Below are positions 15,136 to 21,860 of a stretch of 64,000 nt of DNA, one piece after another. Both the position numbers and the translations under genes were made by a program. How positions within the stretch are numbered: position 1 is the first letter of the stretch; the number at the start of each line of letters is the position of its first letter. The DNA is taken from NCBI RefSeq assembly GCF_054482525.1, contig NZ_CM137006.1. One strand, given 5' to 3'. Below the pieces are notes generated by a model, which saw only the letters and a list, made by a program, of their open reading frames with translations, was not told where the DNA came from and ran no database searches.

Positions 15136-15300
15136 AAAGAAAAAGGCAGCCTGTGGTTGCCTTTTGCCAATAATTCGCACACATTGCGGGTTACTGCTTT
15201 ATTTTCGTTCAGTGCTGATAACGAACATCAACCTGCAAAACGAAGCGCATAGTTTAAAATGGCTATCATCAATACGCTATATCTGATGGAAAAAAATATG
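15136..15300 (-). ncRNA. sraB: Candidate small RNA SraB (boundaries approximate)
   Basis: Intrinsic terminator (GGCAACC-ACA-GGCUGCC then UUUUUCUUU on minus strand, + coords about 15134..15161) sits about 36 nt upstream of yceD start; SraB reported in the yceF-yceD intergenic region (recalled); 5' end not determined. Confidence 0.4.
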
Positions 15301-15882
15301 CCTAAACTTATTTTAGCCTCCACCTCGCCCTGGCGTCGCGCTCTTCTGGAAAAACTGCAAATCTCTTTTGAATGTGCAGCACCCGAGGTCGACGAAACTC
15401 CACACAGCGACGAATCACCGCGACAGTTGGTGCTTCGACTGGCACAAGAAAAAGCGCAATCTCTGGCGTCACGTTATCCGGATCATTTAATTATTGGTTC
15501 AGACCAGGTATGTGTTCTTGATGGCGAAATCACCGGTAAACCGTTAACGGAAGAAAATGCCCGTCTGCAATTACGCAAAGCCAGCGGCAATATCGTCACC
15601 TTCTATACTGGACTGGCGTTGTTTAATTCGGCGAATGGGCATCTGCAAACAGAAGTGGAGCCTTTTGACGTCCATTTCCGTCACCTGAGCGAGGCGGAGA
15701 TTGATAATTACGTGCGTAAAGAGCATCCCCTGCACTGCGCGGGTAGCTTTAAGAGTGAAGGATTTGGCATTACGCTGTTTGAGCGTTTAGAGGGGCGTGA
15801 TCCTAACACGCTGGTTGGTTTACCGCTAATCGCGCTGTGTCAGATGTTACGTCGGGAAGGGAAAAACCCGCTGATGGGATAG
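15298..15882 (+). CDS. yceF: Maf-like nucleoside triphosphate pyrophosphatase
   Basis: ORF track 207 aa; start moved to [14 protein letters not shown] (194 aa). Confidence 0.88.
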
Positions 15883-15993: not shown

Positions 15994-16953
15994 TTAGCGC
16001 GCGTTACGCAGCTTTTGCAAACAACGCTTCAAACCTTCATCCATCGGCGCTTCGATACGCATCACCTCACCGGTCCCCGGATGAGTAAACTTCAACGCTG
16101 CAGCGTGCAGGAACAGGCGATTTAATCCCGTGCCTGCTTCAGTGAGCTGTCTGTCAAATTCACGGTCACCGTAGCGATCGTCAAAGGCAATCGGATGACC
16201 CGCATACTGTGTATGCACACGGATCTGATGAGTACGCCCTGTTACCGGGCTACAACGCACCAGGGTGGCAAAAGCATAGCGTTCTTCCACTTTAAAGCGT
16301 GTTTCCGACGGTTTGCCTTCCTGACTGACACGCACGATACGCTCGCCGCTTTGCAGAATATTTTTCAATAACGGCGCTTGAACGCTCTTCACATGCGACT
16401 GCCACTGACCGCGCACCAGCGCCAGGTAATCTTTTTGCATCCCTTTTTCACGTAATTGCTCATGCAGAGAACGCAACGCCGAGCGTTTTTTCGCTACCAG
16501 CAACACACCTGAAGTGTCCCGGTCGAGACGATGAACCAGTTCAAGGAACCGCGCTTCCGGGCGCAACGCCCGCAAACCTTCGATAACGCCGAAGCTTAAA
16601 CCACTGCCGCCATGTACCGCCGTACCGGAAGGTTTATTCAGCACCAGGATATGGTCATCTTCATATAAGATGACGTCCGCCAGCGCCGCCACCTTTTGCA
16701 GATGTGGCGAAACCGCCTCTTCTTCCCGTTCAGCAACGCGAACCGGTGGGATACGCACCTCATCACCCGCTTCGAGTTTATATTCAGGCTTAATACGTTT
16801 TTTGTTCACCCGCACTTCGCCTTTACGCAAAATACGGTAAATCATACTTTTTGGTACGCCTTTCAATTGGGTACGCAAAAAGTTATCGATACGTTGCCCC
16901 GCTTCGTCAGCGGTGATAGCAACAATTTTTACGGATGGAGTCTCTGTTTTCAT
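15994..16953 (-). CDS. rluC: 23S rRNA pseudouridine synthase C
   Basis: ORF track 319 aa; S4 domain plus RluA-family catalytic region. Confidence 0.93.
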   Translation of the reverse strand: MKTETPSVKIVAITADEAGQRIDNFLRTQLKGVPKSMIYRILRKGEVRVNKKRIKPEYKLEAGDEVRIPPVRVAEREEEAVSPHLQKVAALADVILYEDDHILVLNKPSGTAVHGGSGLSFGVIEGLRALRPEARFLELVHRLDRDTSGVLLVAKKRSALRSLHEQLREKGMQKDYLALVRGQWQSHVKSVQAPLLKNILQSGERIVRVSQEGKPSETRFKVEERYAFATLVRCSPVTGRTHQIRVHTQYAGHPIAFDDRYGDREFDRQLTEAGTGLNRLFLHAAALKFTHPGTGEVMRIEAPMDEGLKRCLQKLRNAR

Positions 16954-17164
16954 GGTGGGCGATTCTAATTAGCCAACAGGATTCGCGCCACTCATTTTTC
17001 TATGCTTATATTTAGTTTTGCACCTTATTACTTCACTACGTGATCACTTTATTGATGGTTATTAAACCAATCACCAGCAAGAAGTGAAAAAACTGTGAGT
17101 AAGCGGGTGATAAATGGTAAAAGTCATCTTGCTATAACAAGGCTTGCAGTGGAATAATGAGGCC

Positions 17165-17525
17165 GTTTCCGTGTCCATCCTTGTTAAAACAAGAAATTTT
17201 ACGGAATAACCCATTTTGCCCGACCGATCATCCACGCAGCAATGGCGTAAGACGTATTGATCTTTCAGGCAGTTAGCGGGCTGCGGGTTGCAGTCCTTAC
17301 CGGTAGATGGAAATATTTCTGGAGAGTAATACCCAGTCTGTTTCTTTGATAATTGCGCTGTTTTTCCGCATGAAAAACGGGCAACCGACACTCTGCGCCT
17401 CTTTGAGCTGACGATAACCGTGAGGTTGGCGACGCGACTAGACACGAGGCCATCGGTTCACACCCGGAAAGGCGTTACTTTGCCCGCAGCTTAGTCGTCA
17501 ATGTAAGAATAATGAGTAAGTTACG
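17165..17525 (+). promoter_or_regulatory. rne long structured 5' leader (RNase E autoregulation); 5' boundary approximate
   Basis: 572-bp non-coding gap upstream of rne; the roughly 360-nt autoregulatory leader is established knowledge; TSS not determined from sequence. Confidence 0.5.
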
Positions 17526-20500
17526 ATGAAAAGAATGTTAATCAACGCAACTCAGCAGGAAGAGTTGCGCGTTGCCCTTGTAGATGGGCAGCGTCTGTAT
17601 GACCTGGATATCGAAAGTCCAGGGCACGAGCAGAAAAAGGCAAACATCTACAAAGGTAAAATCACCCGCATTGAACCGAGTCTGGAAGCTGCTTTTGTTG
17701 ATTACGGCGCTGAACGTCACGGTTTCCTCCCACTAAAAGAAATTGCCCGCGAATATTTCCCTGCTAACTACAGTGCTCATGGTCGTCCCAACATTAAAGA
17801 TGTGTTGCGTGAAGGTCAGGAAGTCATTGTTCAGATCGATAAAGAAGAGCGCGGCAACAAAGGCGCGGCATTAACCACCTTTATCAGTCTGGCGGGTAGC
17901 TATCTGGTTCTGATGCCGAACAACCCGCGCGCGGGTGGCATTTCTCGTCGTATCGAAGGCGACGACCGTACCGAATTAAAAGAAGCACTGGCAAGCCTTG
18001 AACTGCCGGAAGGCATGGGGCTTATCGTGCGCACCGCTGGCGTCGGCAAATCTGCTGAGGCGCTGCAATGGGATTTAAGCTTCCGTCTGAAACACTGGGA
18101 AGCCATCAAAAAAGCCGCTGAAAGCCGCCCAGCTCCGTTCCTGATTCATCAGGAGAGCAACGTCATCGTTCGCGCATTCCGCGATTACTTACGTCAGGAC
18201 ATCGGCGAAATCCTTATCGATAACCCGAAAGTGCTCGAACTGGCACGCCAGCATATCGCTGCATTAGGTCGCCCGGATTTCAGCAGCAAAATCAAACTGT
18301 ACACCGGCGAGATCCCGCTGTTCAGCCACTACCAGATCGAGTCACAGATTGAGTCCGCCTTCCAGCGTGAAGTTCGTCTGCCATCCGGTGGTTCCATTGT
18401 TATCGACAGCACCGAAGCGTTAACCGCCATCGACATCAACTCCGCACGCGCGACCCGCGGCGGCGATATCGAAGAAACCGCGTTTAACACCAACCTCGAA
18501 GCTGCCGATGAGATTGCTCGTCAGCTGCGCCTGCGTGACCTCGGCGGCCTGATTGTTATCGACTTCATCGACATGACGCCAGTACGCCACCAGCGTGCGG
18601 TAGAAAACCGTCTGCGTGAAGCGGTGCGTCAGGACCGTGCGCGTATTCAAATCAGCCATATTTCTCGCTTTGGCCTGCTGGAAATGTCCCGTCAGCGCCT
18701 GAGCCCATCACTGGGTGAATCCAGCCATCACGTCTGCCCGCGCTGCTCCGGTACCGGTACCGTGCGTGACAACGAATCGCTGTCGCTCTCTATTCTGCGT
18801 CTGATCGAAGAAGAAGCGCTGAAAGAGAACACCCAGGAAGTTCACGCCATTGTTCCTGTGCCAATCGCATCTTACCTGCTGAATGAAAAACGTTCTGCAG
18901 TGAATGCGATTGAGACTCGTCAGGACGGTGTGCGCTGTGTGATTGTGCCAAACGATCAGATGGAAACCCCGCACTACCATGTGCTGCGCGTGCGCAAAGG
19001 GGAAGAAACCCCAACCTTAAGCTACATGCTGCCGAAGCTGCATGAAGAAGCGATGGCGCTGCCGTCTGAAGAAGAGTTCGCTGAACGTAAGCGTCCGGAA
19101 CAACCTGCGCTGGCTACCTTTGCCATGCCGGATGTGCCGCCAGCACCAACCCCAGCTGAACCTGCCGCGCCTGTTGTAGCCCCAGCACCTAAAGCTGCAA
19201 CGGCAACACCAGCATCTCCTGCACAACCAGGGTTGTTGAGCCGCTTCTTCGGCGCACTGAAAGCGCTGTTCAGCGGTGGTGAAGAAACCAAACCGACCGA
19301 GCAACCAGCACCGAAAGCAGAAGCGAAACCGGAACGTCAACAGGATCGTCGCAAGCCTCGTCAGAACAACCGCCGTGACCGTAATGAGCGCCGCGATACC
19401 CGTAGTGAACGTACTGAAGGCAGCGATAATCGCGAAGAAAACCGTCGTAATCGTCGCCAGGCTCAGCAGCAAACTGCCGAGACGCGTGAGAGCCGTCAGC
19501 AGGCTGAGGTAACGGAAAAAGCGCGTACCACCGACGAGCAGCAAGCGCCGCGTCGTGAACGTAGCCGCCGCCGTAACGATGATAAACGTCAGGCGCAACA
19601 AGAAGCGAAGGCGCTGAATGTTGAAGAGCAATCTGTTCAGGAAACCGAACAGGAAGAACGTGTACGTCCGGTTCAGCCGCGTCGTAAACAGCGTCAGCTC
19701 AATCAGAAAGTGCGTTACGAGCAAAGCGTAGCCGAAGAAGCGGTAGTCGCACCGGTGGTTGAAGAAACTGTCGCTGCCGAACCAATTGTTCAGGAAGCGC
19801 CAGCTCCACGCACAGAACTGGTGAAAGTCCCGCTGCCAGTCGTAGCGCAAGCTGCACCAGAACAGCAAGAAGAGAACAATGCCGATAACCGTGACAACGG
19901 TGGCATGCCGCGTCGTTCTCGCCGCTCGCCTCGTCACCTGCGCGTGAGTGGTCAGCGTCGTCGTCGCTATCGTGACGAGCGTTATCCAACCCAATCGCCA
20001 ATGCCGTTGACCGTAGCGTGCGCATCTCCGGAACTGGCCTCTGGCAAAGTCTGGATCCGCTATCCAATTGTACGTCCGCAAGATGTAAAGGTCGAAGAGC
20101 AGCGCGAACAGGAAGAAGTACAAGTGCAGCCGATGGTGACTGAGGTCCCTGTCGCCGCCGCTGTCGAACCTGTTGTTAGCGCACCGGTTGTTGAAGAAGT
20201 GGCTGAAGTTGTAGAAGCCCCTGTTCAGGTTGCCGAACCGCAACCGGAAGTGGTTGAAACGACGCATCCTGAAGTAATTGCCGCCGCGGTAACTGAACAG
20301 CCGCAGGTGATTACCGAGTCTGATGTTGCCGTAGCCCAGGAAGTTGCAGAACACGCAGAACCGGTGGTTGAACCGCAGGAAGAGACGGCTGATATTGAAG
20401 AAGTTGCCGAAACTGCTGAGGTTGTGGTTGCTGAACCTGAAGTCGTTGCTCAACCTGCCGCGCCAGTCGTCGCTGAAGTCGCAGCAGAAGTTGAAACGGT

Positions 20501-20828: not shown

Positions 20829-20866
20829 AAAAAAAATGCCCGCCCCGGCGATCCCAGAGCGGGCAG
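20829..20866 (-). terminator. flgL intrinsic terminator
   Basis: GC-rich hairpin (GCCCGC...GCGGGC) followed by U8 on the minus strand. Confidence 0.65.
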
Positions 20867-20906
20867 ACAAAACATACCCAGTTTCATGATATGTTTTAAA
20901 GCGAGC

Positions 20907-21860
20907 TTATTTGTTGAGCTGGAAGAGCGACAATCCCTGCATATCGGTAAATGCTTTATACGATGCCTGCAATGCCGTTTGCTGCATGATGTAAGATGAA
21001 ATAGTTGCATTCCAGTCCACATCAACCAGATCGCTCATCTGCTGCGTTTGCCCTAAAGCGCGATCGCTACCTAATGAATCCAGCGACTCCAGTTCGTTCA
21101 GCTGCGTGCCTAATTCCGCGCGAACAGTCAGCACATTGTTCAGCGAGTTTTTCAGTCCGCGGTTGGTTTTATCCAGTGCCGCAGCGGCGGTTTCTTTATC
21201 CGCTTCGCTATCCGCGACCGGCGTTTTCAGGGCTGCGATGGCGCTATCCAGCATGGCAAAAAGATTTGTTTCAGAAGCGCTACCGTCTGGTTCCGCTACC
21301 GCGTTGCTGGTAATACTGTCGAAAATTTTGTCACCCGTGTGCCCTATCACCATCGAACGCGAAGCATCGACCTGTTGTTTAATACTTTCTGCTCCACCGA
21401 CGTATTTCCCTTTCTCTTCGCTAAACGGCGCAGTCTCTGTTTTATAACCGGCAAAAATGTAGCGCCCGTTACCGTCAGTGGTGTTCGCCAGATTCAGCAA
21501 CTGGTCACGAAGCCCCTGAATATCCGTAGCCAGCGAGGCCCGGTCATCGTCACTCAAGGTGCCATTGCTGGCGTAGACAATTTTTTCCTGAGCATTCTGG
21601 ATAGCAGTGGTGACCTGGCTAAGTACACTCTCTTCCAGTGACACTTTTTGAGTGGCGAAAGTACGCGCCAGCGTGTACTGGCTGTTTTGCGCCTGTGCCT
21701 GGGAGAGAACAACAGCTTGTGATGCAGCAATGGGATCATCTGAAGGGTTAACGACTCGCTTACCCGTCGACATCTGTTCGCCGTACTTCATCCATTCTGC
21801 CTGAGAGTTGGTGATGCCGCGCATGTTTTGCTGGTACATCATCTGGGTACTGAAACGCAT
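20907..21860 (-). CDS. flgL: Flagellar hook-filament junction protein 2
   Basis: ORF track 317 aa; flagellin-like N/C termini. Confidence 0.93.
   Translation of the reverse strand: MRFSTQMMYQQNMRGITNSQAEWMKYGEQMSTGKRVVNPSDDPIAASQAVVLSQAQAQNSQYTLARTFATQKVSLEESVLSQVTTAIQNAQEKIVYASNGTLSDDDRASLATDIQGLRDQLLNLANTTDGNGRYIFAGYKTETAPFSEEKGKYVGGAESIKQQVDASRSMVIGHTGDKIFDSITSNAVAEPDGSASETNLFAMLDSAIAALKTPVADSEADKETAAAALDKTNRGLKNSLNNVLTVRAELGTQLNELESLDSLGSDRALGQTQQMSDLVDVDWNATISSYIMQQTALQASYKAFTDMQGLSLFQLNK

Follow-up and report, generated by a model that had tools for sequence, protein, structure and literature searches.

The window, a stretch of 64,000 nucleotides, is Escherichia coli DNA in which rluC, encoding a 23S rRNA pseudouridine synthase, and rne, encoding RNase E, are divergently oriented around a spacer at 16954..17525. 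An earlier note on this DNA had placed the two genes 572 bp apart, and the coordinates of both coding sequences agree (Table 1). The spacer is 100% identical to that of the O157:H7 strain PV15-279, 99.5% identical to that of a K-12 derivative, and present at 95% identity or more in 5,425 of 5,426 complete E. coli genomes. For comparison across species, 120 loci were collected from one-genome-per-species collections with the hp2 motif GCAATGGCGTAAGACG. About 90 species of Enterobacterales have the two genes in divergent orientation, separated by 552-600 bp. An ERIC insert is carried by Citrobacter braakii and Kluyvera.

The P1 leader of rne takes up 361 of the 572 bp, and the remaining 211 bp (16954..17164) consist of promoter and upstream DNA. 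On the opposite strand, an ORF of 124 codons runs across the leader, as the earlier note had described and as the ORF list confirms; its last 94 nt fall over the upstream part, outside the P1 leader. There is no PGAP annotation within the interval in the sampled RefSeq genomes.

Table 1. Features of the rluC-rne locus, in window positions
Feature	Position	Strand	Basis
rluC CDS, 23S rRNA pseudouridine synthase, left neighbour	15994..16953	-	319-aa ORF; Pfam PseudoU_synth_2 and S4; RefSeq
Conserved block adjoining rluC	16954..17013		conservation, 78 species
124-aa antisense ORF, judged spurious	17071..17445	-	ORF list; coding tests negative
Double DnaA box TTATCACCCgcTTACTCACA	17094..17113	-	exact match to DnaA ChIP-seq site
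rne P1 promoter, extended -10	17129..17158	+	promoter scan; conservation
rne 5' untranslated leader, 361 nt, cis-acting sensor of RNase E feedback	17165..17525	+	Rfam RF00040; covariation; literature
hp1, 5'-terminal stem-loop	17167..17206	+	Rfam consensus structure projected onto E. coli
hp2	17216..17272	+	Rfam structure; conservation; covariation (helices 4-5)
hp3 multibranch domain	17278..17492	+	RNAalifold; covariation
rne ribosome-binding region and ATG	17494..17528	+	close to invariant across Enterobacterales
rne CDS, RNase E, 1061 aa	17526..20711	+	ORF; Pfam RNase_E_G, S1 and PNPase_C; RefSeq

Promoter and leader of rne

The P1 promoter consists of the -35 element TTGCTA (17129-17134), an 18-nt spacer carrying TG at 17150-17151, and the -10 element AATAAT (17153-17158). 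It is the sole sigma-70-like site detected between 16800 and 17700 by a strict scan, which also missed the rluC promoter that must exist. The block containing P1 (17120-17160) shows almost no variation across 78 species. The match to the Rfam leader family begins at position 17165, 7 nt past the end of the -10 element, which gives the leader a length of 361 nt, the value published for rne P1.

Upstream of P1, the conserved block next to rluC has a mean conservation of 0.62-0.79 across 78 species, and the next 40 bp have 0.28-0.35. From its sequence conservation, this block probably holds the rluC promoter or 5' UTR together with upstream rne promoters. It contains the motif TATATT at 17007..17012, which would fit as a candidate -10 element of rne p2, judging by its conservation and by the position of p2, which we take to be near 17020 (p2 and p3 presumably being the upstream promoters of Ow et al. 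2002). The double DnaA box lies 52-71 bp upstream of the P1 start and coincides with a DnaA ChIP-seq site at K-12 position 1,144,772, entered as '(yceQ) rne' (PMC11317965).

The leader is a full-length member of the Rfam family RF00040 (rne5). The match spans 17165..17501 on the plus strand and takes in all 333 model positions, with a score of 260.1 bits and an E value of 1.8e-81, which is far above chance level; the gathering score of the family is 180 bits. It lies directly 5' of the rne ATG at 17526, on the same strand and downstream of the end of the P1 -10 element at 17158. The element scores above threshold, end to end, in 17 of 18 diverse Enterobacterales loci. The earlier note had read the region between the genes as the long structured 5' UTR used for rne autoregulation. 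That element is present, as both RF00040 and covariation attest, but it accounts for the 361-nt leader and not for the whole 572 bp.

The leader folds into the stem-loops hp1 and hp2 and a multibranch domain, hp3, which is closed by an 11-bp long-range helix between 17278-17288 and 17482-17492. Within hp2, the 22-nt block ACGCAGCAATGGCGTAAGACGT (17234..17255) is at least 90% conserved throughout and mostly at least 95% conserved across 78 species; an alignment of 40 genera shows no variation at position 17236 or at positions 17239-17255. The leader also contains small plus-strand ORFs, including one of 34 aa at 17307..17411. This ORF was considered as a uORF and rejected: its ATG is missing in Salmonella arizonae, and the leader is least conserved where it lies.

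Structure prediction, which the earlier note had proposed as a check on the leader, does not discriminate when it relies on folding energy. The single-sequence minimum free energy (MFE) fold of the E. coli leader recovers hp1, hp2, and hp3, with a z-score of only -0.62, and 27 of 100 shuffled sequences fold equally well. Since folding energy therefore provides no evidence, covariation was used, and it does discriminate. Of the 51 pairs that RNAalifold predicts from a plain MAFFT alignment covering 40 genera, 19 have compensatory changes, and the prediction includes hp2, the 11-bp closing helix of hp3, and the hp3 sub-hairpins. The consensus structure of the Rfam family, derived independently of the MAFFT alignment, was also projected onto the 40-genus alignment. 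In this projection 87.8% of cells are paired, compared with 32-45% when the partners are slid by 1-3 columns, and both sides change in 42 of 84 pairs versus 23-29 in the slid controls. The covariation score of the projected structure is equalled by none of 500 shuffles. In helices 1-3, which form hp1, 10 of 11 pairs have changed on both sides, and the closing helix of hp3 is 98% paired across the 40 genera with four pairs that change on both sides. The secondary structure of the leader is conserved, with strong covariation support.

RNase E-dependent feedback on rne mRNA stability has been established experimentally for the E. coli leader. The stem-loop hp2 is reportedly the sensor to which RNase E binds (Diwa et al. 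2000; Schuck et al. 2009), and the rne5 element as such is reported to have been described by Diwa et al. (2000, Genes Dev 14:1249). In the proposed mechanism, RNA polymerase would start at P1 (near 17165) and produce the 361-nt leader, which would then fold into hp1, hp2, and the multibranch domain of hp3. Whenever there is more RNase E activity than its substrates demand, the enzyme would recognize the leader and bind or cleave it, chiefly through hp2, and this would accelerate decay of the rne mRNA and hold RNase E at a steady level.

The antisense reading frame

The 124-aa ORF starts with GTG at 17445. The earlier note had equated it with the questionable yceQ annotation, which is correct as to position but not as to length. 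The K-12 gene yceQ (b1085, NP_415603.2, 'DUF2655 domain-containing protein'), annotated in NC_000913.3, encodes 106 aa rather than 124 and maps to 17071..17391 on the minus strand. It is a sub-ORF in the same frame that begins at an internal GTG, so that the 124-aa version is longer by 18 codons at its upstream end. At 6 nt upstream of the K-12 GTG at 17391 lies AAGAGG, a passable Shine-Dalgarno sequence. Shuffling the region yields an ORF of at least 124 aa in 1.3% of cases and of at least 106 aa in 4%. The 64-kb window contains another 21 'shadow' ORFs that reach 124 aa or more and overlap longer ORFs, and one of them, of 560 aa, is antisense to rne itself. The ORF is within chance at genome scale and mildly unusual locally.

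Conservation of the frame was followed by frame tracking on an alignment, which replaced a longest-ORF survey that was confounded because its 300-nt flanks included rluC. Among close relatives in the alignment, the full 124-aa frame is intact only in Escherichia, where every sequence examined keeps 106-124 codons open. In the species-representative collection, the terminal TGA has become CGA in the Escherichia lineages SCPM-O-B-8794 and E69, which thereby lose the stop. In Salmonella, a +1 indel precedes the K-12 start, so anchoring the frame at the start of the 124-aa ORF made it look more damaged there than it is. Salmonella has codons 19-99 open, followed by TAA; codon 100, which is AAG in E. 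coli, is TAA in all five Citrobacter and in Salmonella arizonae. Citrobacter werkmanii and C. youngae ATCC each carry two +1 insertions, and Enterobacter, Klebsiella, Kosakonia, Cedecea, and other Enterobacteriaceae carry 3-9 frameshifting indels. An 81-82-codon version is still open in Salmonella and some Citrobacter. With the same number of substitutions placed at random, codons 19-99 would stay open in Salmonella and Citrobacter in about 17-24% of cases without selection.

Substitution rates were estimated by the Nei-Gojobori method between E. coli and Citrobacter or Salmonella. The yceQ frame has an omega of 0.67-1.24, inside the spread of five control frames (0.49-2.2), and a 'dS' of just 0.08-0.14. 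For the first 125 codons of rne and rluC in the same genome pairs, omega is 0-0.05 and dS is 0.5-1.4. Within Escherichia, omega is 0.37-0.85 from nine substitutions or fewer, which are too few to exclude weak, recent selection. Variable columns are distributed over codon positions 1, 2, and 3 in the ratio 28:16:25. Synonymous sites are thus constrained like non-synonymous ones, the signature of constraint at the nucleotide level. The dN/dS comparison that the earlier note had called for therefore reveals no purifying selection on the ORF, whose omega resembles that of the control frames.

Codon usage and homology give the same picture. Codon log-odds were trained on 26 long ORFs in the window, and by this measure the antisense ORF scores -0.21 bits per codon, compared with +0.31 ± 0.09 (minimum 0.10) for real genes and -0.25 ± 0.16 for off-frame sequence. 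Its cysteine content is 6.5% versus 1.0% in real genes. A Pfam-A search finds no match to the ORF at E values up to 0.1, and an NCBIfam search finds none at E values up to 1, even though the K-12 annotation names DUF2655. A search of 5.8 billion protein clusters yields 30 related ones, exclusively from Enterobacteriaceae; they are 61-156 aa long with partial coverage, and they include the 81-82-aa versions called in Salmonella and Citrobacter amalonaticus. None of the 30 carries a precomputed Pfam domain. All 30 are antisense to rne upstream regions, and no YceQ homologue occurs among them away from the rne leader. The minus-strand ORF behaves as non-coding in every test run, a result that upholds the earlier view that its composition and position argue against a real protein.

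Experimental evidence and competing readings

Published experiments bear directly on yceQ. Ribosome profiling, named in the earlier note as a check, has already been published: Price et al. found no reads on YceQ in three conditions and recovered transposon insertions in yceQ only in the orientation that drives rne, concluding that no protein is encoded (10.1101/038851). Goodall et al. likewise found by TraDIS that insertions are tolerated in one orientation only, and both they and Rousset et al., using CRISPRi, ascribed the Keio 'essentiality' of yceQ to the rne promoter and leader. The strand effect in CRISPRi fits a block of rne transcription. In addition, codon 8 of yceQ is mutated to a stop in a viable strain with a reduced genome (PMC10249474).

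Natural insertions also occur in the interval. E. coli strain 164 carries an IS1 at 17004-17012 together with a 9-bp duplication that flanks it. In an O121 clinical isolate, an ISEc11 at 17088-17090 interrupts the ORF within its final six codons, at a distance of 75-77 bp upstream from the start of P1. P1 and the leader are both intact in the two strains. These genomes fit P1 and the leader as the indispensable part of the interval.

Genome recoding projects handled yceQ as a protein gene in AGG replacement and met unexplained failures at serine codons, with three yceQ codons refractory to synonymous replacement. The TCA/TCG codons of yceQ lie in functional elements of the opposite strand: codon 2 is in the ACCGA:UCGGU helix (17386-17388), codon 7 is in the hairpin at 17354-17382, codon 57 is in the lower hp2 stem, and codon 78 straddles the downstream edge of the P1 -10 hexamer. 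Serine recoding therefore fails because the changes strike leader helices or the P1 -10 region, where the identity of the nucleotide counts and that of the amino acid does not. Codons 2, 7, and 15 are probably the refractory ones, since they are spaced by 15 and 24 nt and the three reported positions by 14 and 24 nt. Both the 'essentiality' of yceQ and its resistance to recoding are damage to the rne promoter and leader.

It is extremely improbable that yceQ is a real protein gene, restricted to Escherichia or to enteric bacteria and translated opposite the rne leader. Its annotation in K-12 and a frame open throughout the Escherichia examined are set against an omega near 1, equal to that of control frames, and against truncation or shifting of the frame in every non-Escherichia genus examined. 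The length of the ORF is rare among shuffles of the region (1.3-4%), but the codon usage is off-frame-like and rich in cysteine. Versions of 81-82 aa are called in Salmonella and C. amalonaticus, but the lengths of such 'homologues' are erratic, none lies off this locus, and no current Pfam or NCBIfam model matches. The Shine-Dalgarno sequence before GTG 17391 is plausible, but the frame lacks ribosome footprints in profiling data that cover few growth conditions, tolerates a nonsense mutation at codon 8, and is disrupted at its 3' end by a natural insertion sequence.

An untranslated cis-antisense RNA over the rne leader, arising from a putative minus-strand promoter in or beyond the leader, is very unlikely. 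Such an RNA would modulate rne expression as an excludon does, either through transcriptional interference or through a duplex that RNase III cleaves. ExcludonFinder lists rne-yceQ among RNA-seq-supported divergent overlaps, although this listing may just reflect the rne 5' UTR running over the annotated yceQ. An RpoS genomic-SELEX peak in the spacer, near 17045, and the tightly kept spacer length across the order would suit a minus-strand transcript, but no minus-strand sigma-70-like promoter was detected in 16800-17700 by the strict scan that also misses the rluC promoter. Nor does any Rfam family match the minus strand: a permissive search of both strands returned, besides rne5, only a chance-level match to mir-316 (E 0.56). 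Transposon insertions in yceQ that would interrupt the transcript are viable if rne is still driven. The covarying helices of the sense strand account fully for the conservation, but this does not separate the two readings because an antisense RNA would covary equally. The chance that the opposite strand is expressed in Escherichia in either form, as a young de novo 'proto-' gene or as a cis-antisense RNA, is very slight. In the first variant, RNA-structure constraint would have frozen an open frame; in the second, the RNA would couple transcription on the rluC side to rne autoregulation. If the opposite strand is expressed, the main RNA-decay enzyme of the cell is under a second layer of control that the 'dubious' annotation conceals.

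The interval is almost certainly the P1 promoter and autoregulatory leader of rne, and the yceQ ORF on the opposite strand is not a gene. The Rfam match, covariation, promoter conservation, and absence of a protein-level signal were computed here, and RNase E feedback, hp2 binding, DnaA binding, and the absence of ribosome footprints are taken from the literature. Selection acts strongly at the nucleotide level on the RNA structure, the promoter, and the DnaA-binding site. Because the sense strand is under such strong selection, its complement is frozen with it, and in Escherichia this frozen complement happens to run for 124 codons without a stop.

Significance and comparable systems

The rne P1 promoter, the rne5 leader, and the dubious status of yceQ are all already known, and only small side observations are new. 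The value of the locus for discovery is accordingly small, with the leader a textbook case and yceQ dismissed in several published studies. Its practical value lies in annotation and genome engineering, as yceQ persists in the K-12 record and in lists of 'essential genes'. It also serves as a worked example of how constraint on an RNA preserves an antisense ORF and of how dN/dS measured against control frames exposes it.

The element in the window is the same as RF00040 rne5, with a match to the full model, a position upstream of rne, a covarying structure, and no material difference; the family was defined on this E. coli sequence. The ORF at 17071..17391 on the minus strand is likewise the same as K-12 yceQ, for which PGAP RefSeq annotation, current Pfam, and NCBIfam give no support. 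False essentiality through a neighbouring essential gene has also been described for sroG/ribB and psrO/pnp (Rousset et al. 2018) and for rnc/era (Goodall et al. 2018). In these cases, as for yceQ, transposon and CRISPRi effects depend on strand or orientation. However, yceQ is an antisense protein ORF, whereas sroG, psrO, and rnc are same-strand small RNAs or upstream operon genes. Negative feedback in which a nuclease cleaves or destabilizes its own mRNA by way of the 5' region is also found with the class II rne leaders of Caulobacter (alpha-proteobacteria), with RNase Y, and with the rnc leader of RNase III, although these have other architectures and no sequence homology to the leader in the window. 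In the gamma-proteobacterial class I leader, the type found in the window, the single-stranded stretch separating hp1 from hp2 is larger, and the cleavage site lies within it.

The rluC-rne spacer

The spacer between rluC and rne (16954-17525) maintains a near-constant length of 552-600 bp in about 80 species, as seen by comparison with its counterparts at loci L003-L122 fetched from other genomes. These species belong to the Enterobacteriaceae, Erwiniaceae, Yersiniaceae, Pectobacteriaceae, Hafniaceae, and Morganellaceae. Despite this near-constant length, sequence conservation at 17014-17053 is poor (0.28-0.35). Erwinia persicina and E. rhapontici carry about 115 bp extra in total, which is scattered closer to the 5' end of the leader and includes its largest single blocks at approximately -313 (80 nt) and -357 (36 nt).

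A DnaA site named '(yceQ) rne' has been defined by ChIP-seq (PMC11317965), and the window contains an identical double DnaA box. The box precedes the start of rne P1 by 52-71 bp and falls in the 3' portion of the yceQ ORF; it is only moderately conserved across Enterobacterales (~0.55).

In two other E. coli strains, the spacer carries a natural insertion sequence (IS) insertion. ISEc11 precedes the P1 start by 75-77 bp, in the final codons of the yceQ ORF and adjoining the DnaA box. IS1 is located about 155 bp upstream of P1. In both strains, the insertion moves any upstream rne promoters away, by 0.8-1.4 kb.

Features in and around the rluC-rne locus (window positions unless a fetched locus, L-number, is named)
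Feature	Position	Strand	Remarks
Double DnaA box, TTATCACCCgcTTACTCACA	17094-17113	-	Exact match to ChIP-seq-defined site
ISEc11 (IS110-like) insertion	17088-17090		L124, E. coli O121 strain 201805972
IS1 insertion	17004-17012		L123, E. coli strain 164; 9-bp target duplication
Antisense ORF, 560 aa	19017-20699	-	Antisense to C-terminal half of rne
SraB small RNA	15136-15304	-	Rfam RF00077, 209.8 bits, E 8.5e-45
FlgO small RNA (b4826)	~20830-20907	-	K-12 reference annotation
Leader insert	L114 3545-4007		Citrobacter braakii; further loci L038, L075, L111, L031, L076, L042, L079

Antisense reading frames and neighboring small RNAs

In two divergent Escherichia lineages (L054 and L095, from genomes designated E. 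coli SCPM-O-B-8794 and E69), the yceQ stop codon at 17071-17073 is changed from TGA to CGA. This substitution extends the yceQ frame; in the SCPM-O-B-8794 spacer, the longest ORF on the antisense strand grows to 127 aa. The stop loss is a further sign that the ends of the yceQ ORF are not under selection. The 560-aa ORF antisense to rne is a shadow ORF opposite the low-complexity Arg/Glu/Pro-rich scaffold region and shows the length that spurious ORFs can reach in the rne region.

SraB is found upstream of yceF and has an equivalent relative placement in two Citrobacter loci, L004 and L114. In K-12, FlgO is annotated at the flgL 3' end, in the stretch separating that gene from the stop codon of rne. 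At this position in the window, Rfam returns no match above the gathering score, and the exact 78-nt K-12 FlgO sequence is absent from the window's strain.

An insert within the rne leader of other genera

The rne 5' leader contains an extra insert in Citrobacter braakii, C. youngae CCUG, Citrobacter sp. Cu233, Kluyvera, Pseudocitrobacter, and Enterobacteriaceae RIT691. It is positioned about 210-222 nt upstream of the rne ATG, equivalent to window position ~17305-17315, and falls in the hp3-domain hairpin of lowest conservation. Spacer length gives an insert size of approximately 105-125 nt; the contiguous block is fully delimited in C. braakii only, where it measures 125 nt. The Rfam rne5 match remains end to end despite the insert.

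The predicted fold of the C. braakii insert is a long hairpin (-54 kcal/mol), and the insert resembles the ERIC primer sequences (15/18 and 16/18). In E. coli its sequence occurs as a dispersed repeat, at 9,292 places across 4,371 genomes. ERIC elements are reported to influence RNase E-dependent mRNA decay, and the presence of an ERIC-like element within the autoregulatory leader of RNase E itself is a curious arrangement that might merit closer examination.
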